32,000 nucleotides of DNA from Candidatus Brocadiaceae bacterium (GCA_031316145.1 JALDQZ010000012.1:1-32000), one strand, 5' to 3'. Counted from the stretch's first letter, positions 7,578 through 31,920 are shown. Notes: generated by a model from the letters alone, not told the origin. Numbers and translations are program-made.

Positions 7578-7599
7578 ATTTAACGCATAGGAGGAATTT

Positions 7600-9567: not shown

Positions 9568-9588
9568 TTTAAAAAATGCATATCTAAA

Positions 9589-9615
9589 AAGGCACAAAGA
9601 CAGCGGGAACAAAGG
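9589..9615. repeat. Left imperfect inverted repeat flanking the four-helix-bundle cassette
   Basis: aaggcaca (9589-9596) and ggaacaaagg (9606-9615) recur as reverse complements at 9966-9973/9989-9996 and 9977-9986. Confidence 0.55.
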
Positions 9616-9623
9616 AGCAAAGG

Positions 9624-9961
9624 ATGATAAGGAGTTATAGGGATCTAAAAATACGGTAGTATATTCGATAACAAAGTTATTGCCAAAAGAGGAGTTATAT
9701 GGATTGGTATCCCAAGTCAGGAAAAGTGCCGTTTCTATGCCAAGTAATATTGCAGAGGGTTACGGAAGAAACTCTACCAATGAGTATATTCGATTTCTCC
9801 AAATATCGAGTGGCTCTTTGTATGAATTACAAACTCAACTTTTGATTTGTTTAAAATTAAGATACTTATCAAAAGAAACATTTGAAAGCACGTATGAGAA
9901 GAGCAGAGAAATAGAAAGAATATTTAGCCGCTTAATAAAAAAATTGGATAAAAACAATTAA
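9624..9961 (+). pseudogene. Four-helix-bundle protein of the 23S rRNA intervening-sequence (S23-like, PF05635-type) family, disrupted near the 5' end
   Basis: The family core is AVSMPSNIAEGYGRNSTNEYIRFLQISSGSLYELQTQL. The ATG at 9624 gives the family-typical MIRSYRDLKI and then a stop at 9657. Helix 1 resumes in another frame (VVYSITKLLPKEELYGL), which implies a small deletion plus a frameshift. Only a TTG-initiated 93-aa remnant (9680-9961) is open. Confidence 0.65.
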
Positions 9962-9963
9962 AC

Positions 9964-9996
9964 TCTGTGCCTTCTGCCTTTGTTCCTCTGTGCCTT
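9964..9996. repeat. Right imperfect inverted repeat flanking the cassette (contains ctgtgcctt twice)
   Basis: tgtgcctt occurs at 9966-9973 and 9989-9996, and cctttgttcc at 9977-9986. These are reverse complements of the motifs at 9589-9615. Confidence 0.55.
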
Positions 9997-10074
9997 AATA
10001 GCTGCGATATTTCAAATTTTTCAACAAAGTTTATTGTTACTTTTTGAACTCCTTTCTTTATACAGATACATCTC

Positions 10075-11331
10075 ATGATGAAAAGACGAGTGGTGATTAC
10101 CGGTCTGGGGATATTGGCCCCGAATGGAATTGGAAAAGAGGCTTACTGGGACGCAATCATCAATGGTCGATCAGGAATAAACAGAATTTCCTCGTTTGAT
10201 CCTTCTTCTTTCACGACTCAGATTGCTGGTGAGGTGGAAAATTTTGATCCAAAAGACTATGTTGATTCAAGGATGGTGGCTCGATGTGGGAGATTTACCC
10301 ATTTTGGTATTGCAGCCTCAAGAATGGCAACTGCTGATGCCGGTATAGACTTCAGCAAGGAAAACAAGGAGAGATGTGGTGTCTGTTTTGGCACCACATT
10401 AGGCCCGAATAATGATGTGTATGAAACACAGCACAGGAAATTTATAAGTTCTGGTCCTCTGTCTGTGGGACGTCTTACACCAGTTGAGATTACACCGCAT
10501 GTGACGACGGGCTATATCTGTTCAGATCTTCATATTGCCGGGCCGAATTCTACGCTTACTTCAGGATGTTCAACCGGGCTCGATGTGATGGGTTGGGGGC
10601 ACAAAATGATACAACAGGGGAAGATCGATGTTGCGGTTATCGGGTGCGCAGATACGCCAATCTTTCCGTTTATTTTGTCTGCTTTATGTAACCTGGGAAT
10701 TCTTTCCAGGAGTAATAAGGAGCCAGAAAAGGCCTCAAGGCCATATGACAAAAGACGTGATGGCATGGTGCTCAGTGAAGGTGGTGTTTCAATTGTGCTG
10801 GAGGAATTACATCATGCCCTGGATAGGGGCGCGGATATCTATGCCGAGGTATTGTCCTTTGCCTCTACCTGCGATGCTCAGGATATCGTGAATGCTGATA
10901 CCGGCGGGCAGGCTCTGATTTCCGCAATGGAAGAGGTTTTGGTGAGCGGCAGAGTTGGAAAAGAGGAGATAGATTATATTTGTGCCCACGGAAATAGCAT
11001 GCCTTCCTATGATATTGCAGAAACAAATGCCTTTAAGGCCTTCTTTGGTGAGCGTTCGTACAGAATTCCTGTAAGTTCCATTAAATCCATGACTGGTCAA
11101 TCATTTGCTGCCGGAGGCGGGTTTCAGGTGGTGGCAACGAGCCTTAGTCTTAAAAATGGGTTTGTTCCTCCCACCATTAATCTGGACGAACCAGATCCTC
11201 TCTGTGACCTTGATTACGTACCCCATGAAGCCAGACGGTTTTCCATGGAAACCGCCCTGATAAATAGTCATAGTGTTGGAAATACCCATGCAGCTCTTGT
11301 GTTGCGAAGATTTTCTGGAGAAGGAAGGTAA
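10075..11331 (+). CDS. Beta-ketoacyl synthase paralogue with Cys/His/Gln triad
   Basis: TSGCSTG (Cys165, 10567-10569), CAHGNS (His305, 10987-10989), SSIKSMTGQSFAAGG (Gln342, CAA 11098-11100, at the second His position). The C-terminal NSHSVGNTH replaces NSFGFGGTN. Confidence 0.85.
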   Translation: MMKRRVVITGLGILAPNGIGKEAYWDAIINGRSGINRISSFDPSSFTTQIAGEVENFDPKDYVDSRMVARCGRFTHFGIAASRMATADAGIDFSKENKERCGVCFGTTLGPNNDVYETQHRKFISSGPLSVGRLTPVEITPHVTTGYICSDLHIAGPNSTLTSGCSTGLDVMGWGHKMIQQGKIDVAVIGCADTPIFPFILSALCNLGILSRSNKEPEKASRPYDKRRDGMVLSEGGVSIVLEELHHALDRGADIYAEVLSFASTCDAQDIVNADTGGQALISAMEEVLVSGRVGKEEIDYICAHGNSMPSYDIAETNAFKAFFGERSYRIPVSSIKSMTGQSFAAGGGFQVVATSLSLKNGFVPPTINLDEPDPLCDLDYVPHEARRFSMETALINSHSVGNTHAALVLRRFSGEGR

Positions 11332-16957: not shown

Positions 16958-18367
16958 ATGAAACAAAAAAAATTGTGGGGCGGAAGGTTTACAAAACAGA
17001 CGAAACCTTCGGTGGAGTCCTTTACCGAATCAATTTCATTTGATTGGAAACTTTTTCAATATGATATTGAAGGGAGTATTTCTCATGCGACCATGCTTGC
17101 TAAATGCAATCTTATTACGGACAGGGAAAAAAATGCGATTGTTAAAGGTTTAAAAAAAATTCTTGCTGAAATTCATGAAGAATGTTTTGAGTTTAAAAAA
17201 TCACTGGAAGACATTCATATGAATATAGAATCCTCTTTGATTGAGCGGATTGGTGACGCTGGCAAAAAGCTGCATACTGCACGAAGCAGAAATGATCAAA
17301 TAGCCCTTGATTTGCGATTATGGATACGTGACAATATAGAAATAATAGTAGCCCTTTTAATAGCCTTACAAAGTGGATTGGTAAGAAAGGGAAAAGAGTG
17401 TATAGACGTAATTATGCCCGGTTTTACCCATCTTCAACATGCTCAGCCAGTTCTTCTGTCTCATTATTTACTTGCATACGTAGAGATGTTGGAACGGGAC
17501 AAGGCGAGACTGCACGATTGTTCTGTCCGGCTGAACAGTTCACCTCTTGGAGCTTGTGCGCTTGCAGGGACAACACTTCCGACTGATCCGTTGTTTACCG
17601 CAAAATTACTTGGTTTTCATGGGGTTTGTCAAAACAGCATAGATGCTGTGAGTGACAGGGACTTTTGCCTGGAGTTCGTGTTTTGTCTTTCCCTGATAGC
17701 CATGCACCTGTCTCGCCTTTGTGAGGAATGGATTATCTGGTGTAATGATGATGTGAAATTCGTTGAGATCAGTGACGCATATTGCACTGGATCAAGTATC
17801 ATGCCGCAAAAAAAGAATCCTGATATACTTGAATTAATTCGTGGAAAGTGTGGTCGGGTATATGGAAACTTGACGACTTTACTTAGCTTATTTAAAGGGT
17901 TACCGTTAAGCTATAACCGGGATATGCAGGAAGATAAGGTCGCGTTATTTGACGCAACGGATACAGTACTAACTTCCTTGACAATTCTAACGGAACTTGT
18001 GTTGCATACAACATTTCAGGAAGAGCGAATGAGGGAGGCTTGTGAAAAGGGGTTTGTTGACGCTACCTCATTAGCTGAGTATCTGGTTAAAAAAGGGGTT
18101 CCTTTCCGTGTGGCCCATGAGATAGTAGGAAATATTGTTCGGGAATGCATAAAAATCCAATGTAAACTGGAAGACCTGTCGCCGGAGGATTTCAAAAAAT
18201 TTTCTTCTCATATAGAAAAAGATGTGTACAGAGTGCTTGGAATAAAAAACTGTATTAATCAGTATAGAAGTTACGGTTCTACTGCACCAAAGTTTGTTAA
18301 AAAACGTATTGTCTATTGGGGGAAAAAGTTACAAAAAGAAAAAGGATTGAAAAATCCTTCTGGTTGA
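16958..18367 (+). CDS. argH: Argininosuccinate lyase
   Basis: N-terminal KLWGGRFTK, fumarate-lyase signature GSSIMPQKKNPD, and typical length. Confidence 0.95.
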   Translation: MKQKKLWGGRFTKQTKPSVESFTESISFDWKLFQYDIEGSISHATMLAKCNLITDREKNAIVKGLKKILAEIHEECFEFKKSLEDIHMNIESSLIERIGDAGKKLHTARSRNDQIALDLRLWIRDNIEIIVALLIALQSGLVRKGKECIDVIMPGFTHLQHAQPVLLSHYLLAYVEMLERDKARLHDCSVRLNSSPLGACALAGTTLPTDPLFTAKLLGFHGVCQNSIDAVSDRDFCLEFVFCLSLIAMHLSRLCEEWIIWCNDDVKFVEISDAYCTGSSIMPQKKNPDILELIRGKCGRVYGNLTTLLSLFKGLPLSYNRDMQEDKVALFDATDTVLTSLTILTELVLHTTFQEERMREACEKGFVDATSLAEYLVKKGVPFRVAHEIVGNIVRECIKIQCKLEDLSPEDFKKFSSHIEKDVYRVLGIKNCINQYRSYGSTAPKFVKKRIVYWGKKLQKEKGLKNPSG

Positions 18368-18481
18368 GAAAGTGCTGAATGGGAGTTCGGGTGAAGAAAG
18401 AGCTGGTAAACGATTTCTGTTTTTAGCATGGTGATGTGGAATCGTACATTTTAGACAAAAAACTTCGTGGACAAATAAAAA

Positions 18482-19771
18482 ATGGATACGTTTGAGTATA
18501 GAAATAAAATGCTTTTTTGCGAGAAGGCACGAATAGATAAAATAATTTCAGAGGTAGGCTCGCCAGCCTATGTTTACAGTAAAAAAGCAATTTTAGCAAA
18601 TTACAATGAGTTAAAGACAGCATTTCAGGATTTTAATACCTTAATATGTTTTTCCGTAAAATCCAATTCGAATCTTTCCATTTGCAGGATTTTGGCAGAG
18701 GAAGAATCGGGGTTTGATGTTGTTTCCGGAGGAGAATTGTTTCGGGTCATGAGCGCCGGGGGTGATCCTTCAAAGGTGGTATTTGCAGGAATAGGGAAAA
18801 CGGGGGCCGAAATACGATATGCCCTGGAAAACGATATCTTTATGTTTAATGTGGAGTCTCTGGCAGAGGTCGAACACATTAACACTCTAGCGGCAGAAAT
18901 GAACAAAAGGCCGAATCTATCTTTGCGAATTAATCCGGACGTTGATGCAAAAACCCACGCGAAGACTACGACAGGGAAAAAGGAGAATAAATTCGGTATT
19001 GATTTTGATACCGCTGACAAAATTTTGAAAAATTCTGCTAAGTTTTCCGATGTTGATATATGTGGTTTGCATGTACATTTGGGTTCTCCTATTTATACAA
19101 CTGCCCCATATGTGGGAGCGCTTAAAAAGGTCCTGAAATTTATTCAGAAGCACAGGGATGCCGGCATAGACATTGAGTATTTGAATATTGGTGGAGGATA
19201 TTGCGTTTCTTATACGGGGGAAAAAGTCATTCGTCCAAAAGAGTATGTGGCAGATATGTTCCCATTTTTACAAGAGGTGCATTGTAATCTGATCCTGGAA
19301 CCAGGCCGGTTCATTGTCGGTAATGCCGGGATTTTAGTTACAAGTGTGTTGTACAGAAAAGAGACTCTGCATGGGAAAAAGTTCGTTATTTGTGATGCGG
19401 CAATGAATGATTTATTGCGCCCCTGTTTGTATGATGCTTTTCACAGGATATGGCCGGTAAATTCTGGTATCAAAATGCCGGATGCGGAAAATCCTGAAGA
19501 AACTACGGTAAGAAAAGGTATGGATCTGGTTGATATTGTCGGTCCTGTCTGTGAAAGCAGCGATGTTTTTGCAAAAAAGAGAAACTTGCCTCGAGTAAGG
19601 CAAGGGGATCTCTTGGCGATCTTTAGTGCGGGTGCCTATGGGTTCACGATGAGTTCCAATTACAATTCTCGTCCACGTCCTTGCGAAGTCTTGGTGGATG
19701 GAGACCGGTTTCAAGTAATCAGAAAACGGGAAACATATAAGGATTTAATTAAGGGAGAGGTTCTTTCTTAG
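18482..19771 (+). CDS. lysA: Diaminopimelate decarboxylase
   Basis: PLP-dependent Orn/DAP/Arg decarboxylase fold. FSVKSNSNLSICRILAEEESGFDVVSGGEL, EPGRFIVGNAG and CESSDVF are typical of LysA. Confidence 0.88.
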   Translation: MDTFEYRNKMLFCEKARIDKIISEVGSPAYVYSKKAILANYNELKTAFQDFNTLICFSVKSNSNLSICRILAEEESGFDVVSGGELFRVMSAGGDPSKVVFAGIGKTGAEIRYALENDIFMFNVESLAEVEHINTLAAEMNKRPNLSLRINPDVDAKTHAKTTTGKKENKFGIDFDTADKILKNSAKFSDVDICGLHVHLGSPIYTTAPYVGALKKVLKFIQKHRDAGIDIEYLNIGGGYCVSYTGEKVIRPKEYVADMFPFLQEVHCNLILEPGRFIVGNAGILVTSVLYRKETLHGKKFVICDAAMNDLLRPCLYDAFHRIWPVNSGIKMPDAENPEETTVRKGMDLVDIVGPVCESSDVFAKKRNLPRVRQGDLLAIFSAGAYGFTMSSNYNSRPRPCEVLVDGDRFQVIRKRETYKDLIKGEVLS

Positions 19772-19783: not shown

Positions 19784-20422
19784 ATGGCAAAATATTATCC
19801 AATATATCTACACATTAGAGACAAGAAATGCGTGGTGGTAGGGGGCGGAAAGGTTGCATGGCGCAAGGTATGCAGTTTAAGAGAGGCAGGAGCAAGGGTA
19901 ACGGTCGTGGCTCCTGATATATGTGCTGAGCTGAGTCGGGAGGAAGGGGTTGAAATCATAAAACAGAAGTATGATGAATCATTTCTTAAAGAGGCGATGA
20001 TTGTCATCGCTTCAACAGATGATGAACAGGTGAATACAACCGTTTATTCTGATGCAATGAAAAGAGGCTTATTGGTCAATGTTGTTGACAGACCGGAATT
20101 TTGTTCTTTTATCGTTCCTTCCTCAATAGAACGGGGTGACCTTAGAATTAGTATTTCAACGGGAGGGGCGAGCCCTGCCCTGGCGAGGAATATACGCAAA
20201 TCTTTGGAAGGGCAGTTTGGGAAAGAATATTGCGAGTTTACAAGGCTTTTATCAGAGATGCGAAAAAAGGTTCTTGTAGAAGTACGGAATGAATCAATAA
20301 GACGAGATATTCTGCAGCGAATAGCAGGGTTGGATTTTCTGGAGGTTATAAAAAAAGATGGTCCCGACGTAGCACAACGAAGGATGTTAGATGTTATTTC
20401 TGAGAAATGTCCCAAAGAATAA
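19784..20422 (+). CDS. sirC: Precorrin-2 dehydrogenase / sirohydrochlorin ferrochelatase (CysG N-terminal / SirC-like)
   Basis: NAD-binding VVVGGGKVAWRKVCSLREAGARVTVVAP. Also ISISTGGASPALARNIRKSLE. Confidence 0.8.
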   Translation: MAKYYPIYLHIRDKKCVVVGGGKVAWRKVCSLREAGARVTVVAPDICAELSREEGVEIIKQKYDESFLKEAMIVIASTDDEQVNTTVYSDAMKRGLLVNVVDRPEFCSFIVPSSIERGDLRISISTGGASPALARNIRKSLEGQFGKEYCEFTRLLSEMRKKVLVEVRNESIRRDILQRIAGLDFLEVIKKDGPDVAQRRMLDVISEKCPKE

Positions 20423-20457
20423 ACCAGGTATAGTGGTATCCTTGTTTTCATTTTTGC

Positions 20458-20486
20458 TTGCAAGAATTTTTGTGAAGTGATACTAT
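20458..20486 (+). promoter_or_regulatory. Candidate sigma-70-type promoter (TTGCAA-17 bp-TACTAT) for the sulfur cluster
   Basis: Hexamers at 20458-20463 and 20481-20486, with the -10 hexamer ending 108 bp upstream of the ATG at 20595. Confidence 0.35.
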
Positions 20487-20594
20487 TAAAATGGATAGAA
20501 TAATGGGTGTTCATTTTTATGTATGTGCCTATTTTTTTAGTGGTTACTCACGATACGTCGTTAAGGAATGGTTCTAAATTATATTGGAGTATAA

Positions 20595-21485
20595 ATGGCT
20601 GAAAAGAGTGTAAAACAAAGAATAGATTTTGGGGAATTAAAATCCGGCGGTTTTATAAAGCAGACACAAAAAGACCTGTTTACCGTCCGGTTAAAAGTGC
20701 CTGGTGGGCGTATTACGCCAGAGAGAATGACAAAGATTGCTGAAGTTGCAAAAAAATATAGTCGGCTTGGGTATTGTCACCTGAGTTTCAGGCAGTCTGT
20801 TGAAATTATTGGTGTCCATATTGATGATTTTGATGCTGTTGTGAAGGAGCTTGCTGAGGTAGGGCAGAAAGTCGCTTCTTGTGGTCCCAGGGTAAGAGTG
20901 CCTACGGCATGCGGGGGATGTGAATACAATCCCAATGGAATTATGGATACACAATCTAAGGCGTTGGAGGTTGATGAGAAATTTTTTGGCACACCATGTC
21001 CTCACAAATTTAAGATAGGATTTTCCGGATGTCCCATTGATTGTACAAGAAGCAGAGAATCTGATTTGGGGTTTCAAGGTGTGGTGTATCCGGTATGGAC
21101 TGAGGATTTATGCAATGGTTGTACCCTGTGTGCTAAGGCATGTGCAGAGGGTGCGATAGTATCCGATACAGAAGGAAAACCTGTGTTTGACGAGTCGAAG
21201 TGTGTGTATTGCGGCGACTGCATCAGGGCATGCCCTACAGATGCATGGAGGGACAAAGTAAAAGGATGGCTGGTACGGGTAGGGGGAAAACATGGAAGAC
21301 ATCCGCGTGAAGCTGACCAGGTACTCAACTTTTTACCCGATGATAAAGTAAATGATTTTGTCGATGCAACGGTAAAGTGGTACAAGGAAAACGGGAAGCC
21401 AAAAGAGAGAATCGGCACCTGTATAGATCGCGTTGGTCTGGACAAATTTAAAAAAGAAGTTGTTGCTACATTAACAGACAATTGA
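20595..21485 (+). CDS. Small sulfite/nitrite reductase-like siroheme-[4Fe-4S] protein with inserted 2x[4Fe-4S] ferredoxin domain (Dsr-like protein)
   Basis: NiR/SiR ferredoxin-like half domain (VRLKVPGGRITPERM). Siroheme-cluster Cys motifs TACGGCEYNPNG and GFSGCPIDC. Ferredoxin motifs CNGCTLCAKAC and CVYCGDCIRACP. Confidence 0.65.
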   Translation: MAEKSVKQRIDFGELKSGGFIKQTQKDLFTVRLKVPGGRITPERMTKIAEVAKKYSRLGYCHLSFRQSVEIIGVHIDDFDAVVKELAEVGQKVASCGPRVRVPTACGGCEYNPNGIMDTQSKALEVDEKFFGTPCPHKFKIGFSGCPIDCTRSRESDLGFQGVVYPVWTEDLCNGCTLCAKACAEGAIVSDTEGKPVFDESKCVYCGDCIRACPTDAWRDKVKGWLVRVGGKHGRHPREADQVLNFLPDDKVNDFVDATVKWYKENGKPKERIGTCIDRVGLDKFKKEVVATLTDN

Positions 21486-21497
21486 TTGGGGAATCAG

Positions 21498-21917
21498 GTG
21501 AGGGATAAAAAAAAATTTGTTATATTTGCCCATAGTGGGACCTATGATAAGCTCTATCAAATCATAACGCTGGCTATTACAGCTGCCTCATCCGGAAGAG
21601 AAACACATATTTTCCTTTTCTTTTGGGCCTTGAAAAAGTTTGTAAACGAAGAATTTGACGTTACAAGGCTTTCTTTTGAATTTGGTGAAGAAGGTGAATG
21701 CCTGGCCAAGCATATGCAGAAGCTCAATCCTGTATCTCTCAAAGAAATATTTCAAGAGGTGAGAGGTTTGGGGAATTTAAAAGTTTATGCCTGTACAGCT
21801 GCAGTAAAACTTATGGGTTTGGATGAAACCGTTGTAAAATCAAAAGTGGATGATATTCTTGGTTTGACAACCCTGTTGGAAATAGCAGAGGGGGCGGAAA
21901 CTCAGTTGTTTATATGA
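21498..21917 (+). CDS. DsrE/DsrF-like sulfur-relay family protein
   Basis: KKFVIFAHSGTYDKLYQ...VYACTAAVKLMGL with a conserved Cys. I prefer the GTG at 21498 (gggg 6 nt upstream). The track ORF starts at TTG 21486. Confidence 0.6.
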   Translation: MRDKKKFVIFAHSGTYDKLYQIITLAITAASSGRETHIFLFFWALKKFVNEEFDVTRLSFEFGEEGECLAKHMQKLNPVSLKEIFQEVRGLGNLKVYACTAAVKLMGLDETVVKSKVDDILGLTTLLEIAEGAETQLFI

Positions 21918-21935
21918 GAACTGAGGGTTGATACT

Positions 21936-22883
21936 TTGACAAACGTTGCAATGAAAAATAGAGCACGTCTAACGAAGGATGCCTTTAGGGGTTCAGTTTT
22001 GCATACGGTAGGGAATACCCCGCTCATCAGAATACGCAGGCTTACAAAGGGGGTGGGGAATAAGGGCGTAAACGTCTATGCAAAGGCAGAATGGTTTAAT
22101 CCGGGAGGGTCTATAAAGGACCGTGCGGCCTTACGCATTATTGAAGATGCTGAAAAGGCAGGTGGATTAACTCGCGGGAAAACTATTATTGACTCAACAT
22201 CGGGAAACACGGGCATTGCTTATGCCATGATTGGTGCGGTAAAAGGATATGACATTACTTTGGTGATGCCTTTGAATGTCAGTGAGGAACGCAAAAGGAT
22301 TGTACGTGCTTTTGGAGCGAAAGTCATCTTTTCAGATCCGATGCTGGGGTCAGACGGTGCAATGGCGGAAGCGAAGCGGATGGTAAAAGAAAATCCATCG
22401 AAGTATTTTTATGCCGATCAGTATAATAATCCTGCGAATTGGATGGCTCATTATACCACTACGGGTGTTGAAATATGGAAACAAACGGCAGGAAAAGTAA
22501 CACATTTTATTGCATGCCTTGGTACGAGTGGCACTTTTATGGGTACGGGGAGGCGTCTGAAGGATTATAATTCAGACATACAGCTAATATCTGTTGAGCC
22601 TTCTACTCCAATGCATGGATTGGAAGGGATGAAGCATATGGCTTCATCAGTGGTTCCTGGTATTTATGATGGAGAGTATGCGGATAGAAAGATGACCGTG
22701 CAGACGGAAGATGCATATGCGATTGTAAAAAGACTTGCGGTAGAGGAAGGTTTTTTTGTCGGTTATTCTTCGGGTGCCGCGCTTGCGGCTTCCTTGAAGC
22801 TTGCAAATGAAATTGAGCAGGGATTGATTGTTACGGTTTTCCCCGATAGAGGTGACCGGTATCTCAGTACCCGTTTTTGGTAA
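21936..22883 (+). CDS. cysM: PLP-dependent cysteine synthase (CysM/CysK family)
   Basis: GNTPLIRI, NPGGSIKDRAA (PLP Lys) and SSGNTGIAYA. A gaggg RBS lies 8 nt upstream of the TTG at 21936. Confidence 0.85.
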   Translation: MTNVAMKNRARLTKDAFRGSVLHTVGNTPLIRIRRLTKGVGNKGVNVYAKAEWFNPGGSIKDRAALRIIEDAEKAGGLTRGKTIIDSTSGNTGIAYAMIGAVKGYDITLVMPLNVSEERKRIVRAFGAKVIFSDPMLGSDGAMAEAKRMVKENPSKYFYADQYNNPANWMAHYTTTGVEIWKQTAGKVTHFIACLGTSGTFMGTGRRLKDYNSDIQLISVEPSTPMHGLEGMKHMASSVVPGIYDGEYADRKMTVQTEDAYAIVKRLAVEEGFFVGYSSGAALAASLKLANEIEQGLIVTVFPDRGDRYLSTRFW

Positions 22884-22919
22884 TGAACCGGATTGTAGAA
22901 CATTTGAGGTGTTTGTGCT

Positions 22920-23339
22920 GTGTTATCTATTGGAAAAGATGTGATTCGAGAGATAAAAAAAGAGGTAAAAAAAAATTATCCGTTCGAATGTTGTGGGTTG
23001 CTCATCGGAACAAACACCTCGGAAAAGCGTGTAGTTGAAGTGCGGCCGGTACAAAACAAGAATACAAAAAGAACGCATGATCGCTATGAAATAGACGGTA
23101 GAACATTTGATAAGGTAGATAAGGAAGCGAAAAAGAAGGGCCTTCAAATAATAGGCATTTATCACTCGCATCCAGATCATCCGGCTATCCCTTCTGAATT
23201 TGATACAGAGAACGCCTGGAGTGTATATTCTTATCTCATTGCTTCCAGAGAAAAAGGGAAGAAAATTGATATAAGGTCATGGGTATTCGATGAAGTAGAG
23301 AGAAAGTTTGAAGAAGAGGAAATACGTTATATAGAGTAA
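22920..23339 (+). CDS. JAMM/MPN+ zinc metalloprotease (Mec+-like)
   Basis: ECCGLLIG (catalytic Glu) and an exact JAMM motif HSHPDHPAIPSEFD (HxHx7SxxD). GTG start with a gaggtg RBS. Confidence 0.85.
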   Translation: MLSIGKDVIREIKKEVKKNYPFECCGLLIGTNTSEKRVVEVRPVQNKNTKRTHDRYEIDGRTFDKVDKEAKKKGLQIIGIYHSHPDHPAIPSEFDTENAWSVYSYLIASREKGKKIDIRSWVFDEVERKFEEEEIRYIE

Positions 23340-23442
23340 CGTTCGGTAATATCTCGGTATTGACAAAGAAGAAGATTGTTTGTGAATCTATGCGAAACAG
23401 GCTCTATGTATGATCATAAAAACTGAACAGAGGAGTTGTCAC

Positions 23443-23688
23443 GTGGCTGAGGAAGAAAAAATTTGTCCGGATGATAAAATTGATTTGCGGGGAGTACTTT
23501 GTCCTATTAATTTTGTAAAAACGAAATTAAAATTAGAGATGCTGGATTCAGGGCAGGTTTTAGAAGTGATTTTAGATGATGGTGAGCCGATGAGAAGTGT
23601 CCCGAAAAGTGTCAAAGAGGAAGGGCATAAAATCATAAAAGTCGAGAATATGGGAACTGCTTACCGCATACTGATAAAAAAAACATAA
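23443..23688 (+). CDS. TusA/SirA-like sulfurtransferase
   Basis: DLRGVLCPINFVKTKLKLEML (CPxP-type active-site Cys, here CPIN) and VILDDGEPMRSVPKSVKEEGH. The GTG at 23443 has a gaggag RBS 7 nt upstream. The alternative ATG at 23410 lacks one. Confidence 0.7.
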   Translation: MAEEEKICPDDKIDLRGVLCPINFVKTKLKLEMLDSGQVLEVILDDGEPMRSVPKSVKEEGHKIIKVENMGTAYRILIKKT

Positions 23689-23743: not shown

Positions 23744-23860
23744 TCGACCGTTTCGAGAAAACTATAGGTGTCTGATGATTGTTTTCTTTGAAAATTTTTT
23801 AAAGAAAAGAGCGTAATGCATTGTGCTCATTTGAGTTGGTGGGTTTTATAATTCAAGGAT

Positions 23861-23928
23861 GATGTATTGCTTTTATACCATTTTCACATACATTGATGTA
23901 TTGCTTTTATACCATTTTCACATACATT
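23861..23928. repeat. Perfect 34-bp tandem duplication (2 copies)
   Basis: gatgtattgcttttataccattttcacatacatt occurs at 23861-23894 and again at 23895-23928. Each unit has inverted ends (atgtat / atacat). It lies 54 bp upstream of the Rieske ATG. Confidence 0.95.
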
Positions 23929-23981: not shown

Positions 23982-24503
23982 ATGAAAACAAAAGGCAAGA
24001 AGCATACATATCATGCATCAGAAAAACAGGGGGGGATTTGGTTTACTATTTCCCGGAGAAATTTTTTCAGTTTAGCAGGTTGGGCGCTCTTTTTCGCGAC
24101 AATAGGGGCTTATCTGGGAGAGCTTGCAGGATATAAAGGGTTTTTTTATCCTAAGGTCCTTTTTGAGCCTTCACCACGATTTACGATAGGAGAGCCAGGC
24201 TCTTTTCCGGAAAATTCCGTGACCACGTTAAAGCCGAGAAAGATATTTGTTGTGCGAGATGGCAACAGTTTTAAGGCCATTTCAGTTGTATGTCAGCACT
24301 TAGGATGTGCGGTAGAGTTTTCTAAAGAGAAAAACATATTCGAGTGTCCTTGTCATGGCAGTAAATATTATCGAAATGGCGTAAACTTTGCCGGACCAGC
24401 GCCGAGGCCTCTTGACCACTTTGAAGTTCTTTTAAATGACAACGGTAAGCTGGTAGTAGATACAAGCGTAAAAGTGCCTTTAGAAACAGAGTTAGTAGTT
24501 TAG
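23982..24503 (+). CDS. Rieske [2Fe-2S] protein with Tat-type signal anchor
   Basis: Twin-arginine motif ISRRNFFSLAG followed by a TM helix. Rieske boxes CQHLGC and CPCHGS. Strong aggagg RBS. Confidence 0.92.
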   Translation: MKTKGKKHTYHASEKQGGIWFTISRRNFFSLAGWALFFATIGAYLGELAGYKGFFYPKVLFEPSPRFTIGEPGSFPENSVTTLKPRKIFVVRDGNSFKAISVVCQHLGCAVEFSKEKNIFECPCHGSKYYRNGVNFAGPAPRPLDHFEVLLNDNGKLVVDTSVKVPLETELVV

Positions 24504-24551
24504 TTTTGAATTTTACATCCTTATACTCTTTAATCATGAAGGTTTGAATTT

Positions 24552-26312
24552 ATGACCCAAGCAACAAAATCACAAAAAGGGACGAGGGTGCTTCTCGATT
24601 TAAATTGGTTGCAAGAGAATATCCGCTGTCAACATCGCTGTCCGGCCCATATGGATGTGCCGGGATATATACGTTTAATAAGCCAGGGCAAATACCAGGA
24701 ATCACACATATTGATGAGGGAAACAAATCCTTTTCCAGCGGTGTGTGGATATGTTTGTCCGCATCCGTGCGAATCTAAATGTAAAAGGGGTGATTTTGAC
24801 AGGCCCGTTGCTATTGATGCACTAAAACGTTTTGTAACTGATTATATATTTAAACATAAAATCAAAGCGCCGCTTCCTCAGATAAAACAAAGGAAGGAAA
24901 GGGTTGCCGTAATTGGCGCAGGCCCAGCGGGTTTGACAGCAGCTAATGATCTTGCGGGTATGGGTTACAACGTTACTGTATTTGAAAAAGACCCTCAGGT
25001 TGGTGGTATGATGATGTGGGCAATTCCGTCCTATAGGTTGCCGCGTGAGCAGATAATGTTTGATGTGAGTCAAATTGTTGCGCGAGGTGTTGAGATAAAG
25101 ACCAACTCCCCTATCGGAACTCCCGGAAAGACAATTTCCGGATTATTGAGAGATGGGTATAAAGCTGTATTTATAGCTGTGGGTGCTCAGAATGGGAAAC
25201 GGTTGGAGATTCCAGGGGAGGAGGATACAGAGGGTGTTATGGATTGCCTGGAATTTTTGAGAAATGTAAATGGCGGCGATCTGAGAAGTCCGGGTAAAAA
25301 GGTAGCGGTAATAGGCGGTGGAAATTCTGCTATTGATGCAGCGAGGACGGCGCAGCGGCTGTCGGATGAAGTTTATATTGTGTATCGAAGAACGAGAGAA
25401 GAAATGCCGGCGCTTCCGTGGGAGATTGAGGAGGCGGAGCATGAAGGAGTGAGATTTCATTATCTTGCTGCGCCAGTGAAAATTATAACTGAGAATGGGA
25501 AGGCGAAAGCCTTGGAGTGTATTAAAATGAGATTGGGCAAACCTGACAGCAGCGGAAGAAGACGCCCTGAACCAATCCCGAAATCAGAGTTTACGATTGA
25601 AGCCGACTGTATAATTTCTGCGATCAGTCAAGAGGCCGATCTGCGTTTTCTTGGAGAGGATCACGGATTAGAGGTGACGAAGTGGGGCACGCTTAAGGTC
25701 GATAAAACTCTCCATACGAACAAAAAGGGCATATTTGCCGGTGGTGATGTGAATTTGGGGCCAAGCACTATTATAGAGTGTATAGCAGAAGGGCATACTG
25801 CGGCAAAATCAATTGACCGGTATATACGGGGGGAAGAGCTTGAAGAACCGAAACAAAAGGTTTGGGTGACGCTTTTGGATGCAGACATTGATGAGCGTGA
25901 AGAAAATTATGATTCTGTGCCGCGGCAGCAGATGGCACATTTGCCGACACAGGATAGGCAAGGTACCTTTGATCTGGTAGAGCTTGGTCTTATAGAGGAA
26001 CAGGCAAGAGCTGAGGCTCTTCGTTGTCTGAAGTGTGATCTCAGTATAAATGTTGAAACCAATGAGTGTGTTCTGTGTGGTAGGTGTAGTATGGTCTGCC
26101 CCGTTGGCGCTTTGAAACAGGTGGATGTTTCTGATATGAGTAAGGAGCACCGGCCTTTCTTGAGTGAAGATGGTATTGTCATAAAATACACTGACAAATG
26201 TATTCGTTGTGGTAATTGTAAAGATTGTCCCGTAAGTGTTGTTTCAATGAAACGAGTGCTTTGGAAGCCAAATGAGGAAATCAATGAGCCTTTAGAAGAA
26301 AGGGGGGGGTAG
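24552..26312 (+). CDS. GltD/NfnB-like NAD(P)-dependent FAD/FeS oxidoreductase subunit with C-terminal 2x[4Fe-4S] ferredoxin domain
   Basis: N-terminal Cys clusters (CQHRCPAH, CGYVCPHPCESKC). Two Rossmann motifs (VAVIGAGPAGLTAA, VAVIGGGNSAIDAA). C-terminal CVLCGRCSMVCP and CIRCGNCKDCP. Confidence 0.85.
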   Translation: MTQATKSQKGTRVLLDLNWLQENIRCQHRCPAHMDVPGYIRLISQGKYQESHILMRETNPFPAVCGYVCPHPCESKCKRGDFDRPVAIDALKRFVTDYIFKHKIKAPLPQIKQRKERVAVIGAGPAGLTAANDLAGMGYNVTVFEKDPQVGGMMMWAIPSYRLPREQIMFDVSQIVARGVEIKTNSPIGTPGKTISGLLRDGYKAVFIAVGAQNGKRLEIPGEEDTEGVMDCLEFLRNVNGGDLRSPGKKVAVIGGGNSAIDAARTAQRLSDEVYIVYRRTREEMPALPWEIEEAEHEGVRFHYLAAPVKIITENGKAKALECIKMRLGKPDSSGRRRPEPIPKSEFTIEADCIISAISQEADLRFLGEDHGLEVTKWGTLKVDKTLHTNKKGIFAGGDVNLGPSTIIECIAEGHTAAKSIDRYIRGEELEEPKQKVWVTLLDADIDEREENYDSVPRQQMAHLPTQDRQGTFDLVELGLIEEQARAEALRCLKCDLSINVETNECVLCGRCSMVCPVGALKQVDVSDMSKEHRPFLSEDGIVIKYTDKCIRCGNCKDCPVSVVSMKRVLWKPNEEINEPLEERGG

Positions 26313-26376
26313 GAAGTATTCTGTTATGAAGGGGAAAAAATGGTAATAAACGTAATACGGAGGAAGGGGCGTTTAA

Positions 26377-27147
26377 ATGAAATTAATTGAGGAGTTAAAA
26401 AGGAAAATCACAGACAATGAAATTTGGAGGTCTGTATTTCGCCACGGTTACGCAGATACCCCGAGAAACCGAGTTCTTCAGATTATCAGCAATGTATGGT
26501 TGCACTTGCATCCTGCAAAGGTTCGAGAGCACGGTACGCAAATCAGATTTACTTGGTGCATGGGAGGTATTACTTTTTTCGTATTCCTATTCGAGACGAT
26601 AACAGGTGTGCTGTTAATGTTTTATTATACGCCTGATGTGAATAGGGCTTATGCGGATATTGTGGACCTGATGTATGTTGTGCCTTTTGGCAGGTTTTTA
26701 AGAAACTCTCACAGATGGGGTGCGCACGCTATGGTAATTACGGTGAGTATTCATATGCTTCGAGTGTTTCTGACGGGTTCTTATAAGCCTCCAAGGCAGT
26801 TTAATTGGGTAGTTGGGGTAGTACTGTTGGTTCTTACGTTGTTGTTGAGTTTTACGGGTTATTTGTTGCCATGGGATCAGCTTGGATATTGGGCTATTAC
26901 CGTTGGTACTAATATGGCTCGTGCAACACCGCTTCTCGGTCATGAGGGTCCGTTTGCATATATCTTAGGTATGGAAGCGAATAATGATGTGCGTTTTGCA
27001 TTGCTGGGAGGCACATTGATCGAGGCTCCAGCTTTGTTGAGGGCTTATGTGTGGCATTGCATTGGAATACCACTGGTAGCATCGGCGTTGATGATGGTTC
27101 ATTTCTGGAGGGTAAGAAAAGATGGAGGGATCTCAGGTCCTCTGTAG
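26377..27147 (+). CDS. Cytochrome b, b6-type N-terminal half
   Basis: Helix [16 protein letters not shown] (His pair i, i+14). Helix [17 protein letters not shown] (i, i+15, as in b6). [13 protein letters not shown]. The C-terminus [10 protein letters not shown] matches the b6 C-terminus. WCMGGIT aligns to b6 YCLGGIT. Confidence 0.92.
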
Positions 27148-27201
27148 TGTTCAATTAAATTTTTCGTTAGATTATTGGAGAAATTTCTGAGGAGTGGTTC
27201 C

Positions 27202-27924
27202 ATGGCGGTAAGTGAAGGGAAAAGAGAGTTAGTCGAATTTAAAGACGACAAGGTTTTTACATGGCCCACCCTGGTTGCTAAGGAGTTCCTGGCTGCTATT
27301 TTTGTGACGGTAGGGCTGCTTGTCTATTCATATTATGTAGATGCTCCTCTTAGGGAGTTATCAAACCCTGGGCAAGCTGAAAATCCAGCAAAGGCTCCTT
27401 GGTATTTCTTGGGATTACAAGAGGCTTTAGTATATTTTGATCCATGGTATGCAGGCGTAGTTCTTCCCAGTATCATCATACTGGGATTAATTGTCATTCC
27501 GTATATAGACAATAATCCGAAAGGGAATGGCTATTTTACTTTTAAAGAGAGAAAGTTTGCAGTATCAGTTTTTATGTTTGGTTACATACTTTGGTATGTT
27601 TTGATTTATATTGGTACTGCTCTAAGGGGGCCGTTTTGGGCGTTTTTCTGGCCTTGGGAAGAATGGACGCATGATTTCCCCACCCCTGCTCCTTTACATA
27701 ATCTACCATTGCCTTTGGGGATAGTGCTGGTGTTCGGATTTTATTTCTTCGGATTGATTATACCTGCGCTGGTAAAAAGAGACTTCTTTTTGAGGATTGG
27801 GGTAATTCGTTACCTCATTACGATGGGTCTTCTTTTAACCATGATTGGCACCATAATTAAAATGGTTTTTCGGTTGGCATTTAGTGTTAAGTATATTATT
27901 GCCACCCCTTGGATTAACATATAA
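27202..27924 (+). CDS. Cytochrome b C-terminal half / subunit IV-like protein (extended)
   Basis: The Qo-region KAPWYFLGLQEAL aligns to b6f subunit IV PEWYFFPVFQIL. Multiple TM helices. The ATG at 27202 has a gaggag RBS, whereas the track ORF starts at TTG 27175. Confidence 0.85.
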   Translation: MAVSEGKRELVEFKDDKVFTWPTLVAKEFLAAIFVTVGLLVYSYYVDAPLRELSNPGQAENPAKAPWYFLGLQEALVYFDPWYAGVVLPSIIILGLIVIPYIDNNPKGNGYFTFKERKFAVSVFMFGYILWYVLIYIGTALRGPFWAFFWPWEEWTHDFPTPAPLHNLPLPLGIVLVFGFYFFGLIIPALVKRDFFLRIGVIRYLITMGLLLTMIGTIIKMVFRLAFSVKYIIATPWINI

Positions 27925-27971
27925 TTATTTTCAAGATACCTTAAATCGAGTATTTCCGGGATAGGTGATTT

Positions 27972-29057
27972 ATGACCGTACAAAGACTGATTTTTTTGTT
28001 ATTAAGCGGCTTGTTTTTTATCTCCACATTGTTATGGTTTCATCAGGAGTTCAATCCTGAGTGGAGGGAATATCAAAAGGAATATTTCGAAGAACAGGCC
28101 GTAAAAGTAGAGAAAGAGCTAAGTTCTGCAGATACTATACTGGAACAGGAGGTGCTAACGAGGCGTCTGGCATCGCTGCGAAGACCTGTATATGAAATTA
28201 AACAGATTCTTTTACAAGGCGAATATAGTTGGAAGAAACAGCAGAATGGGGATAAGGTTGATCGCTGCATGACTTGCCATATGGATGAAGAAAAATTGAC
28301 CAAATCTCATAATACTAAGGTTTTTCCTTTTGACCTTTATGGATGTACTGTTTGCCATGGAGGTAATGGTAGGGCTCTTTCCGTAGAGCATGCTCATGAG
28401 GGTATGTATTCGGGGAGAAGAGAAATGCTGCAGAGAGTGGTGGCCGCGGAGCCAATGTTCGAATTTTGGGAAGAATTGGCGACGCTGACTCCGGAAGAAA
28501 GCGATCCAAACCAGCGCATTGAGATGGGTGATTTCAGGGGGTACTGTATTACCGGTGACAGGATGAATTATGTTGGTAGTAAAAAATGTCTCAAATGCCA
28601 CACAGGTTTGACGTCTCCACATGTAGAACGCTGGCAAAGGATCAAGTTCAAGACTTTCGAGCGCGTAAAAGAAGCACCTGATTACATTGCTGGTAACGAG
28701 AAGTATAAAAAGCTTTGTTGGGAGTGCCATACCACGGGATATAATGAGGAAACAGGAACATATTCCGAGGAAGGAGTAACGTGCGAGGCTTGCCACGGAC
28801 CGGGAGAGGTGTTTAGTTATTTTATGGATGTGGGAAAGGCTCCTGAGGGACAAAAAATTGCGAAAGTGGGAACCTTCGGCACCCCGTACAATATTTGCGG
28901 ACCGTGTCATCATACCCGAGGACATGAGATGCGACTCAGGTTTTTCCAGGAGCAAGGTGCTGATGAAGAATGGTTTTTCCCGCGGCACACAGAACCATAT
29001 AAGACGATATCGGGAGAAACTGATTCCGTGGATAGTTCACTGCCAAAGATTCAGTAG
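27972..29057 (+). CDS. Membrane-anchored hexaheme cytochrome c
   Basis: N-terminal TM helix. Six CxxCH motifs: CMTCH, CTVCH, CLKCH, CWECH, CEACH, CGPCH. Confidence 0.9.
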   Translation: MTVQRLIFLLLSGLFFISTLLWFHQEFNPEWREYQKEYFEEQAVKVEKELSSADTILEQEVLTRRLASLRRPVYEIKQILLQGEYSWKKQQNGDKVDRCMTCHMDEEKLTKSHNTKVFPFDLYGCTVCHGGNGRALSVEHAHEGMYSGRREMLQRVVAAEPMFEFWEELATLTPEESDPNQRIEMGDFRGYCITGDRMNYVGSKKCLKCHTGLTSPHVERWQRIKFKTFERVKEAPDYIAGNEKYKKLCWECHTTGYNEETGTYSEEGVTCEACHGPGEVFSYFMDVGKAPEGQKIAKVGTFGTPYNICGPCHHTRGHEMRLRFFQEQGADEEWFFPRHTEPYKTISGETDSVDSSLPKIQ

Positions 29058-29144
29058 ATTTGAAATTGCACGTTCGTTTGAAAAAAGGAAATAAAGTTGT
29101 GTTTATTAATACCATTTGCAGGCTTTAAGGTGAGGAGGCGTAAA

Positions 29145-30890
29145 ATGAAGTTTTTAAAATCGGGCGCGATTTTTTTCGCGGTCCTTATGATGCTGAGTGC
29201 GTATGTCGGAAGCACGCAGGCACAGTCAATGGACGAGCTGAAAGAAATGCAGAAGAAGGCCATGAATTATTATGACGAATTATATCCTAATACTCCGTTG
29301 CCACTTAATGACTGGTTTGTTAAAAATGTCGGTTTGGAGAAAGGCGCAGGTCCCTGGCAGGATCTATATAAACCGGTTCCATTACAAATGTATTGGTTTC
29401 CTATAAGACACTATGTGAAGCCAGAAGGCACATATTATGATCAGTTGCTCGAAAAATACAAACCCAGTGACTGTGTTGAGTGTCATAAAGAGGTTACCCC
29501 TGGATTTGTGCATGATTGGGAAGATTCTACCCATGCTCATCCGAGAAAGAATCCTCGGGTCGCAGAGAAGACCCAGAAAATTGAAAAATTGATTGGAAGG
29601 GATTTGAAAGAGGTAACCTGCAGCGACTGTCATGGGAAAGACCACAAAGAGCTTCGTATGCCGACTCCAGATGTGTGCGGCGAATGTCACCCTCAGCAGG
29701 TAACGGAATTTATGAGCGAGGCTGAACGTGGTAGACCGAATCACATCGACGGTTTAGCGGCGAATGTCATTCCCATGTGGTATCCGGAGATGTTCAGGAG
29801 GGGTTATCCTGCTGGTCAGTTCGGGTGTGATATGTGTCACGCGACAGATAGATGTAATATCTGTCATACAAGACACAAATTTGCCGCTGCGGAAGGAAGG
29901 AGACCGGAAGCCTGTATGAGTTGCCATATGGGTTTTGACCATCCGGATGCGGAAACATATGGTGAATCAAAAATGGGTATGATTTATCATATGGAAGGTG
30001 AACACTGGGATTGGGAAAAACCGTTGGCGGAGGTTGTACCCGGCAAGGATTACAGGACGCCTACCTGTCAATTCTGCCATATGGACCAAGGTGATGGCAC
30101 TTTTGCCCATAATCCTGTGATAAAAGGCGTATGGAGGATGGGCACCGTACCTCCTAAAGGAGTTGATTACAAGTCTTCTATAAAAGATTATCCTCATGGT
30201 ATCAATATACCTCCTATGAATTACAAGTTAGACATATACTCTCCTGAAAATAAGAAACGATCGGAACAGTGGGTAGCGGTGTGTAGCAAATGCCATAGCC
30301 CTAGATTTGCAAGGTTATATCGTGAGAATTTGGATGATTTCATGTTTGAGATGTGGAAGCATCAGGATAGGGCGCAGTTAATTTTAGATGATATCGTAGC
30401 AAACGATGAATTTGAAGTGCCTATTAAAGAAAGAGATATCTTTCCTCTCGGTGACATACTTGCCGATGCGCTTGGACCTGGGTTGTTAGGTGAAGCCGTT
30501 TATAACGCTTTTAAGGACTCACATGGAAAGGTGCCTGTTGTAGGACCGATTCTTGGATTGTACGGTCTGTTTATGACTGGAGATCATAATCCGTCAGAGA
30601 TAGAACTTACCTATGCGGACATGTGGTTTGGTGACAAGGCGCACGCCTATAAGGGCGTAGCTCACGGGCAACAGGATATTGCATGGTGGTATGGCGCTTC
30701 ACAGGTTTATCAGAAGATCAATATTCTGGAAAGCCAAGCCGTAGCGCTGAAAACGCAGAAGCAAGTAAGAGAGTTTCTGGATTCTAGGAAAAGGAAAAGT
30801 CATGCTGGCATAATTGGCGCTATTATAGGTGTTGTAGCAGTCGCGATGTTTGGTGCTGCCGTAATGAAAAAAAGACTGGATAAGAAGTAG
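29145..30890 (+). CDS. hao: Octaheme hydroxylamine oxidoreductase-like (HAO family) protein with signal peptide and C-terminal TM anchor
   Basis: Eight CxxCH motifs: CVECH, CSDCH, CGECH, CDMCH, CNICH, CMSCH, CQFCH, CSKCH. Sec signal MKFLKSGAIFFAVLMMLSAYVGSTQA. C-terminal helix AGIIGAIIGVVAVAMFGAAVM followed by KKRLDKK. The ATG at 29145 has a gaggagg RBS, whereas the track ORF starts at TTG 29097. Confidence 0.9.
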   Translation: MKFLKSGAIFFAVLMMLSAYVGSTQAQSMDELKEMQKKAMNYYDELYPNTPLPLNDWFVKNVGLEKGAGPWQDLYKPVPLQMYWFPIRHYVKPEGTYYDQLLEKYKPSDCVECHKEVTPGFVHDWEDSTHAHPRKNPRVAEKTQKIEKLIGRDLKEVTCSDCHGKDHKELRMPTPDVCGECHPQQVTEFMSEAERGRPNHIDGLAANVIPMWYPEMFRRGYPAGQFGCDMCHATDRCNICHTRHKFAAAEGRRPEACMSCHMGFDHPDAETYGESKMGMIYHMEGEHWDWEKPLAEVVPGKDYRTPTCQFCHMDQGDGTFAHNPVIKGVWRMGTVPPKGVDYKSSIKDYPHGINIPPMNYKLDIYSPENKKRSEQWVAVCSKCHSPRFARLYRENLDDFMFEMWKHQDRAQLILDDIVANDEFEVPIKERDIFPLGDILADALGPGLLGEAVYNAFKDSHGKVPVVGPILGLYGLFMTGDHNPSEIELTYADMWFGDKAHAYKGVAHGQQDIAWWYGASQVYQKINILESQAVALKTQKQVREFLDSRKRKSHAGIIGAIIGVVAVAMFGAAVMKKRLDKK

Positions 30891-30999: not shown

Positions 31000-31920
31000 A
31001 TGTTAAATAACATAAAAAAGTACGTGCTTAGCTCTCAACAGTTCGGTGCGTTTTCCTATCCATTTAAGAATGAGAGTATGGCTTACAAAAACTCTAAAGT
31101 GATAATTATGGGCGTTCCTTTTGATGGCACTGCTACGTATCAAACAGGGGCGAAGATGGGTCCTGGTGCAATTTTAAACGCATCTATTAATATAGAGCCA
31201 CATGACGTAGATTTGGGAGATGTTTACAAGGTTGGAATATTCACTATCGGTACCCTCAATATTGAGGAAATACATGCTGATCCTGAAAAAGTTATTGATG
31301 CTGTATACCATTCCAGCAAAAGAATTGTAAATGATGACAAATTTTTAGTTATTTTAGGAGGTGAGCATTCTATTTCTCAGGGATCAATCAGGTCTTATAA
31401 AGAAAAATATAAACGTTTGTCTGTTCTTCAACTTGATGCACATTTGGATTTATTGAATGAGTTTGGAGGGAGCAGGTATAGTCATGCAAGCATAGCAAGG
31501 AGGGTTGTCGAAGATTTAAAATGCAAGGTTACTAGTTTTGGAATACGGGTAGTTTCTAAAGAGGAAAAGGGTTTTTTGAGAAAAAACAAAGGGAATCTTT
31601 CCGTATTTTTTGCGAGAGATATATATGATAACAATAATTGGCATAAAGACGCCATTAATACTTTAGAAGATTATGTGTATATTACCCTGGATGTTGATGG
31701 ATTAGATACTTCCATCATGCCGGCAACAGGAACACCTGTCCCTGGAGGGTTGGGATGGTATCGCACACTTGATTTTTTGCAAAAAGTATATAAGGAACGA
31801 AAAGTAGTCGGATTAGATATCGTAGAATTAAAACCCAATGCAGGAAACGAAGCCCCTAATTTTCTCGCAGCAAACCTTGTTTATAAAAACATAGGTTTTT
31901 ATAAAAAATATACCTTATGA
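31000..31920 (+). CDS. speB: Agmatinase / ureohydrolase family protein
   Basis: Arginase-fold Mn-binding motifs GGEHSIS, LQLDAHLDL and ITLDVDGLD. Confidence 0.8.
   Translation: MLNNIKKYVLSSQQFGAFSYPFKNESMAYKNSKVIIMGVPFDGTATYQTGAKMGPGAILNASINIEPHDVDLGDVYKVGIFTIGTLNIEEIHADPEKVIDAVYHSSKRIVNDDKFLVILGGEHSISQGSIRSYKEKYKRLSVLQLDAHLDLLNEFGGSRYSHASIARRVVEDLKCKVTSFGIRVVSKEEKGFLRKNKGNLSVFFARDIYDNNNWHKDAINTLEDYVYITLDVDGLDTSIMPATGTPVPGGLGWYRTLDFLQKVYKERKVVGLDIVELKPNAGNEAPNFLAANLVYKNIGFYKKYTL

Follow-up and report, generated by a model that had tools for sequence, protein, structure and literature searches.

The 32,000-nucleotide stretch of Candidatus Brocadiaceae bacterium DNA analyzed here (GCA_031316145.1 JALDQZ010000012.1:1-32000; the window, with positions numbered from its first letter) carries a cluster of six sulfur-metabolism genes at 19784-23688. 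The products are SirC, a small siroheme/[4Fe-4S] sulfite reductase (SiR), a DsrE2-type sulfur-relay protein, the cysteine synthase CysM, a JAMM zinc metalloprotease, and a TusA-type sulfurtransferase. We consider it fairly probable that this is the Brocadiia form of a carrier-dependent sulfite-to-cysteine protein-thiocarboxylate route, with the ThiS/MoaD-type carrier and its E1 enzyme unlinked from the other genes. We read the cluster as a rearrangement, specific to this lineage, of a neighbourhood class that was already described in 2006, and not as a new pathway. On this reading, it is distinguished by the clade-wide unlinking of carrier and E1 and by the insertion of an anammox-specific DsrE2.

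Orthology and carrier-clade signatures

All six open reading frames (ORFs) were found consecutively on the plus strand, as a preliminary description of the DNA had it, and each family name proposed there was upheld by Pfam and TIGR profile matches (Table 1). Outside Brocadiia, the JAMM protein has its closest relatives, at 47-51% identity, in loci L011 and L014. The gene order in these loci is SiR-TusA-ThiS-NIL-CysM-JAMM-ThiF-...-sulfate permease-APS (adenosine 5'-phosphosulfate) kinase-PAPS (3'-phosphoadenosine 5'-phosphosulfate) reductase-ATP sulfurylase, and TusA adjoins ThiS in both. Identities to loci of this type are 57-60% for SiR, 61-64% for TusA, and 57-63% for CysM. In 2006, Iyer, Burroughs and Aravind reported this neighbourhood, made up of ThiS/MoaD, JAB, E1, SirA, sulfite reductase, and genes of sulfate activation (row 4e of their Table 1; PMC1779556). 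The E1 of that row always lacks a rhodanese, and SirA (TusA) was predicted to stand in for it; rows 4c and 4d hold the cysteine-synthase forms, including the mycobacterial one (PMC1779556).

The window cluster has the orthologous small sulfite reductase, TusA/SirA, JAB, and pyridoxal 5'-phosphate (PLP) sulfhydrylase in common with row 4e (47-64% identity), as well as the same coupling of sulfite reduction to a protected sulfur donor. In contrast to that class, it lacks ThiS, the NIL protein, ThiF, and the sulfate-activation genes. TusA has moved to the 3' side of JAMM, and sirC and the anammox-specific DsrE2 have been added. No Sat, CysC, or CysH gene is adjacent; the neighbours are argH and lysA upstream and a Rieske/cytochrome b complex downstream. 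The Mec-CysO-CysM system of Mycobacterium tuberculosis likewise pairs a CysM-type PLP enzyme with an adjoining intact JAMM, and its E1 is unlinked as well. Unlike that system, the window has no cysO between or beside the cysM and JAMM genes and no ClpS or helical-protein neighbours, and it adds the sulfite reductase, SirC, DsrE2, and TusA. The preliminary description had drawn this comparison; taken alone, it understated how well described the neighbourhood class already was (PMC1779556).

The identity of the window CysM is 41% to E. coli CysM and 39% to E. coli CysK, compared with 50-62% to 31 CysMs encoded in cis with ThiS. It retains 93 of the 97 positions that are at least 85% conserved among those 31 proteins. 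Eighteen signature positions, at which E. coli CysK and CysM both deviate, are kept without exception (18/18) in all nine Brocadiia CysMs; they include the loop H227-x2-E230-x2-K233-H234. For the C-terminal half, the best solved match was M. tuberculosis CysM in 3dwg, a structure of the CysM-CysO complex. The position of M. tuberculosis CysM Arg220 is aligned with Lys233 in the window CysM and with Arg in E. coli CysM. Scored against TIGR01138, the protein falls slightly under the cutoff (385.5 bits, cutoff 394.2), and it passes that of TIGR01136 cysKM (355 bits, cutoff 344). Over the full length, its score is 249 bits against E. coli CysM but 208 bits against M. tuberculosis CysM.

The catalytic residues of the JAMM protein are intact. 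Its HxHx7SxxD motif, called perfect beforehand, reads H82-S-H84-x7-S92-x2-D95 and is accompanied by E23. The protein has 26 invariant columns in common with orthologs adjoining ThiS, and every family-invariant residue is kept. All six genes are under purifying selection (median ratios of nonsynonymous to synonymous substitution, dN/dS, in Table 1), and nothing in the sequences suggests relaxed selection or altered function. By these measures, Brocadiia CysM and JAMM still resemble carrier-dependent enzymes.

To place the cluster among its relatives, 160 related loci were annotated with profiles made from reference operons. At the protein level, JAMM and DsrE2 share 73-83% identity with Candidatus Jettenia, Kuenenia, Brocadia, and other Brocadiaceae; by these matches and its neighbouring genes, the window comes from an anammox bacterium. 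One complete Jettenia genome, seven further Brocadiaceae representatives, and 23 metagenome contigs all have the order sirC-SiR-DsrE2-CysM-JAMM-TusA-Rieske. The contigs came from a metagenome scan with the window CysM, in which the next hits belonged to other phyla, at no more than 59% identity. The position of sirC is constant across all profile-annotated Brocadiaceae and Scalindua loci. JAMM adjoins CysM throughout the Brocadiaceae and in a deep, non-Brocadiaceae lineage of Brocadiia, and JAMM and TusA are adjacent in every Brocadiia locus whose sequence runs past JAMM, even where CysM is lacking. The deep lineage has the order SiR-CysM-JAMM-TusA, without DsrE2, ThiS, or ThiF; DsrE2 was therefore added after the carrier had left the cluster. 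For the same reason, we rejected DsrE2 as a replacement for ThiS-NIL.

Three Scalindua genomes have the order sirC-SiR-DsrE2-JAMM-TusA-Rieske. JAMM lies directly 3' of DsrE2, and CysM is absent from the cluster and from the whole of the 14.5-20 kb loci. No relocated Scalindua-type CysM appeared in the metagenome scan with the window CysM, whose exact-peptide patterns may have missed it. The Scalindua JAMM proteins are long, with an extension of about 85 hydrophobic C-terminal residues that is membrane-spanning in appearance. The long homologs were considered as JAMM-carrier fusions and rejected, because the extension is no beta-grasp domain but a hydrophobic membrane segment. Directly upstream of the Scalindua sirC-SiR genes lie two formate/nitrite-transporter-family genes (PF01226; L022 5589-7499, minus strand). 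This family also includes hydrosulfide channels.

Proposed route and the sulfur-handling proteins

The chemistry of the proposed route is modelled on the mycobacterial and Wolinella systems. In 2011, Krishnamoorthy and Begley reportedly demonstrated biochemically that HcyS/HcyD/HcyF/MetY of Wolinella succinogenes makes homocysteine via a protein thiocarboxylate. By analogy, we infer each biochemical step, the existence and identity of a trans carrier, and the direction of the hand-off between DsrE2 and TusA. SirC, by its domains a precorrin-2 dehydrogenase and sirohydrochlorin ferrochelatase and thus the siroheme supplier, would serve the small ferredoxin-containing sulfite reductase. The latter, the only candidate sulfur source inside the cluster, would convert sulfite to sulfide or possibly to sulfane sulfur. 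The reduced sulfur would be bound by the conserved Cys of DsrE2 and/or TusA. TusA, in the rhodanese role, would pass it to the adenylate of a ThiS/MoaD-type carrier made by a ThiF/MoeB-type E1 encoded elsewhere; a rhodanese profile search found no rhodanese in the Brocadiia loci. CysM would then join the carrier thiocarboxylate to activated serine, and JAMM would free cysteine from the carrier-Cys adduct. In addition, JAMM may trim the carrier back to the GG end. The L014 carrier ends in GGAGI, so trimming is needed in relatives; the operon-linked carriers have the motif ...RFVN-Y-NDEDIR...IP-IAGG.

SiR is a 296-residue member of the nitrite/sulfite-reductase family with an inserted 2x[4Fe-4S] ferredoxin. 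Among solved structures, its closest relative is 7np8 (E 1.4e-43), in the C-terminal half of F420-dependent sulfite reductase (Fsr). The domain order and the inserted two-cluster ferredoxin are those of this C-terminal sulfite-reductase half and of Dsr-like small sulfite reductases, whereas the F420H2-dehydrogenase half of Fsr is missing. Twelve Cys residues are invariant among 42 orthologs, including all eight of the ferredoxin insert. The first siroheme-cluster Cys motif, SCGPRVRVPTACGGC (C96, C106, C109), is near-invariant in the same 42 proteins. The spacing C-x9-C-x2-C differs from the C-x5-C of Fsr, and therefore the cluster ligation may differ from that in Fsr.

Of solved structures, the closest to the DsrE2 protein is that of a Sulfolobus DsrE-like protein (PDB 2qs7, E 1e-17). 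The Cys of the window protein (YAC-T; Cys99 in the 139-residue numbering), noted as conserved in the preliminary description, is invariant in 175/175 homologs, that is, in 115/115 from anammox bacteria and in 60/60 distant representatives. The best 120 of 218 word-sharing homologs all belong to Brocadiales. In a HMMER pass over 1.84 billion representatives, 48 proteins reached E<=1e-10 and 2 reached 1e-30. Judged by these sequence comparisons, DsrE2 is a small, anammox-specific (Brocadiales-specific) subfamily. TusA/DsrE2 (rhd-tusA-dsrE2) and DsrE3A/TusA are cytoplasmic sulfur-relay modules of sulfur oxidizers such as Allochromatium and Metallosphaera. The window cluster likewise combines a TusA that has a conserved Cys with a PF13686 DsrE2 whose Cys is invariant. 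In contrast to those relays, it contains neither a rhodanese nor Hdr/Dsr oxidative genes, and its context is assimilatory.

Relay proteins also occur beside a carrier. The operon in L028 has the order CysM-JAMM-ThiS~NIL-ThiF-DsrE-DsrF-DsrH, followed by sulfate permease, DsrE2, TusA, and ATP sulfurylase (Sat). DsrE-family proteins and TusA thus coexist with ThiS and ThiF, which implies that the relay complements the carrier and is no alternative to it. ThiS and the 78-residue NIL protein are fused (about 175 residues) in L028 (3326-3856, Pfam-confirmed) and, by profile annotation, in L090 (3020-) and L092 (7477-); in other relatives, they are encoded by adjacent genes. A ThrC-like PALP gene often heads these operons. 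NIL/ferredoxin proteins have been implicated in homocysteine synthesis elsewhere (PMC5764234).

The missing carrier and competing explanations

Among stop-to-stop frames of at least 40 residues in all six frames of the 32-kb window, none resembled a GG-terminal carrier. The GG-tailed frames were only the ends of 586- and 256-residue respiratory proteins and three distant frames of 45-48 residues. Pfam scans and a ThiS/ThiF profile search found no ThiS or ThiF domain in the large ORFs of the window. These results bear out, to a lower size limit, the earlier statement that no carrier ORF lies in or next to the cluster. The Brocadiia genome loci scanned for GG-tailed carrier ORFs likewise contained none. 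We then counted carriers and E1 enzymes in loci with at least 2.5 kb upstream and at least 2 kb downstream of JAMM, with flanks of up to about 10 kb per side. ThiS or ThiF was present in 0/29 Brocadiia loci, anywhere in the locus, and, within 4 kb, in 46/50 CysM-JAMM loci of other lineages, where the partner is often a ThiS-ThiF-rhodanese fusion directly downstream. Both have thus been lost completely from the Brocadiia cluster, and long ago, as the loss spans Scalindua to Brocadia. The 29 loci represent one clade and effectively one evolutionary event.

Unlinked partners are not uncommon elsewhere. Dadabacteria-type loci have TusA-CysM-JAMM-ThiF, and cyanobacterial loci have JAMM-ThiF-Rhd alone, in both cases with no ThiS in cis. 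The mycobacterial E1 MoeZR is also unlinked and serves both CysO and MoaD, being shared with molybdopterin synthesis. For anammox bacteria, a survey of metagenome-assembled genomes from five enrichment cultures reported thiamine-synthesis potential, with a gene set defined to include thiFGHI (PMC9530715). An E1 and, by implication, a ThiS would therefore exist in trans. Another anammox study reported a complete thiamine pathway and an incomplete methionine pathway. Of the two possibilities raised in the preliminary description, a carrier encoded elsewhere is thus the better supported, by orthology, the CysM signatures, the invariance of JAMM and the selection on it, the unlinked precedents, and the thiFGHI-defined gene set; the carrier itself was not found.

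Several points weigh against the carrier-dependent route. The contrast between 0/29 and 46/50 loci is one of them. A second is that no trans carrier emerged when the L014 ThiS was used to query a set of 5.8 billion proteins: the best 120 of more than 8000 candidates were all deltaproteobacterial and at least 75% identical. Literature on Kuenenia locus tags and on an anammox sulfur carrier, MoaD, or MoeB gave no lead, nor did the KO (KEGG Orthology) numbers in the supplements of one paper. The ThiS/ThiF pair of thiamine synthesis need not serve CysM. The study that reported the complete thiamine pathway relays a claim that anammox bacteria lack molybdopterin synthesis, and a MoaD therefore cannot be assumed. 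Finally, JAMM and TusA without CysM in Scalindua fit a strict CysM-JAMM partnership poorly, unless CysM has been relocated. In the deep Brocadiia lineage, a MobA-like nucleoside triphosphate (NTP)-transferase gene lies upstream of the sulfite reductase and divergent from it (L006 7082-7756, minus strand). This gene is a hint that the class has molybdenum-cofactor metabolism and hence a MoaD-type carrier.

The cluster might instead encode an ordinary sulfide route, which we regard as unlikely. In that case, CysM would combine O-acetyl- or O-phosphoserine with free sulfide, or with a small-molecule persulfide, supplied by the sulfite reductase. The task of DsrE2 and TusA would be to buffer or traffic sulfur, and JAMM would have an unrelated or residual role, for instance in the deconjugation or maturation of a ThiS-like protein that serves other purposes. 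The cis absence of carrier and E1, the higher full-length score against E. coli CysM, and the retention of JAMM by Scalindua in a cluster without CysM are consistent with this route, and cysteine synthases are reported to take both sulfide and persulfide donors (PMC13188885). However, JAMM has stayed next to CysM in all Brocadiaceae and in the deep lineage, under purifying selection, and a CysM with so modest an identity to its E. coli namesake has kept every one of the carrier-clade residues. A carrier-free variant would go further, with the carrier and E1 dropped across the class Brocadiia. Sulfane sulfur from the reductase would travel from DsrE2 to TusA and reach CysM as a protein persulfide, and JAMM would have a new, non-ThiS substrate, for example a TusA- or DsrE2-linked adduct; the Scalindua JAMM would be membrane-anchored and CysM-independent. 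We think this improbable. It would account for the clade-wide absence of ThiS and ThiF, for the persistent JAMM-TusA adjacency, and for the location of the anammox-specific DsrE2 in the exact ThiS-NIL slot of the ancestral order; zero-valent sulfur release by assimilatory sulfite reductases has also been claimed recently (PMC13188885). Neither TusA nor DsrE2, however, has a GG tail or another feature of a JAMM substrate, and JAMM and CysM have not diverged from their carrier-dependent orthologs. The deep lineage lacks DsrE2 and ThiS/ThiF alike, so DsrE2 is no replacement, and DsrE2, TusA, and DsrEFH are found together with ThiS and ThiF elsewhere. The variant persulfide pathway entertained in the preliminary description draws no support from our data, since its relay proteins coexist with ThiS and ThiF in the L028 operon.

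The small siroheme enzyme could also mainly reduce or detoxify nitrite in nitrite-exposed cells, with the sulfur genes as chance neighbours. The enzyme family comprises nitrite as well as sulfite reductases, the two transporter genes lie directly upstream in Scalindua, and the cluster adjoins an anammox respiratory complex. Against this, the 57-60% identical orthologs sit in sulfate-assimilation operons, the closest solved relative is a sulfite reductase, and the conserved promoter-like block and tight spacing tie SiR to DsrE2, CysM, JAMM, and TusA. Such a function seems very improbable to us.

Gene coordinates, transcription unit, and surroundings

Table 1. Coordinates and profile matches of the cluster features and of the long Scalindua JAMM genes; dN/dS values are medians over 20 Brocadiaceae loci.
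Feature	Position	Strand	Profile match or description	Median dN/dS
sirC (cysG N-terminal-domain type)	19784-20422	+	PF13241 + PF14824; TIGR01470, 158.7 bits (cutoff 62.3)	0.094
Promoter-like element, sirC-SiR gap	20458-20486	+	TTGCAA, 17 nt, TG-a-TACTAT (extended -10)	
Small siroheme/[4Fe-4S] sulfite reductase (SiR), Fsr-C / Dsr-LP type	20595-21485	+	PF03460 + PF01077 + Fer4	0.034
DsrE2-type sulfur-relay protein	21486-21917	+	PF13686 DsrE_2	0.066
CysM, carrier-linked (CysO-type) clade	21936-22883	+	TIGR01138, TIGR01136	0.070
JAMM/MPN+ zinc metalloprotease, Mec / HcyD type	22920-23339	+	PF14464 Prok-JAB	0.125
TusA/SirA-type sulfurtransferase	23410-23688	+	PF01206, 76.8 bits; Cys within CPINF motif	0.052
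Scalindua long JAMM (210-227 residues)	L022 10001-10675; L023 9173-; L024 10001-; also P0059, P0061, P0065			

Two of the reading frames probably start downstream of the positions in Table 1. The TusA gene probably begins at GTG 23443 (ribosome-binding site GAGGAG) and encodes 81 residues, as in the annotation of an identical public contig. For DsrE2, the probable start is 21498, giving 139 residues. The spacing between lysA and sirC is 12 nt, and the gap between sirC and SiR is 172 nt. An alignment of these gaps from 21 Brocadiaceae and Scalindua loci revealed a retained block, CTTGCAAGA-T5-...-TGaTAAnAT. The consensus is TTGCAA-17-TGnTAnnAT, its conservation spans Scalindua to Brocadia, and the block occurs once in the whole window. 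From the consensus and the conservation, we infer that it functions as a promoter. Because this block sits in the sirC-SiR gap, SiR-DsrE2-CysM-JAMM-TusA is probably the functional and transcription unit. A second conserved block, TCGACAAnnTCTATAGACTTCT in most Brocadiaceae, precedes the promoter-like block within the 20430-20486 stretch. It could be an operator; no regulator for it was identified. Generic promoter and terminator scans of the window gave background levels, the promoter being seen only through the 21-locus alignment, and an Rfam scan of the window found no riboswitch or other RNA.

The genes argH and lysA (16958-19771) directly precede sirC, and an arginase-family gene (31000-31920) lies 3' of the respiratory complex; the neighbours are the same in Jettenia. 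The complex itself (23982-30890) comprises a Rieske protein, the 586-residue FAD/NAD(P) iron-sulfur subunit, a split cytochrome b, and multihaem cytochromes, including a 597-residue Multi-haem_cyto protein. Because it follows the sulfur cluster in Jettenia and Scalindua as well, the two have stayed neighbours across anammox genera. Between tusA and the Rieske gene, a gap of 293 nt contains a perfect 34-bp tandem duplication at 23860-23928, with two copies of TGATGTATTGCTTTTATACCATTTTCACATACAT. Farther upstream, a B12-binding radical-SAM gene (7762-9567) lies amid three ketoacyl-synthase genes (4612-5841, 5842-7137, and 10075-11331). This arrangement at 4612-11331 recalls the proposed anammox ladderane-lipid gene clusters.

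Sulfur assimilation has hardly been studied in anammox bacteria. The gaps that pathway tools report in their synthesis of sulfur amino acids feed hypotheses of cross-feeding. Our results suggest a protein-thiocarboxylate route to cysteine in anammox bacteria, one that is unrepresented in standard pathway databases. If this is true, some apparent anammox auxotrophies would need another look. The clade-wide unlinking, the lineage-specific DsrE2, and the Scalindua JAMM together provide a natural test case for the mutual dependence of persulfide relays and ubiquitin-like carriers.

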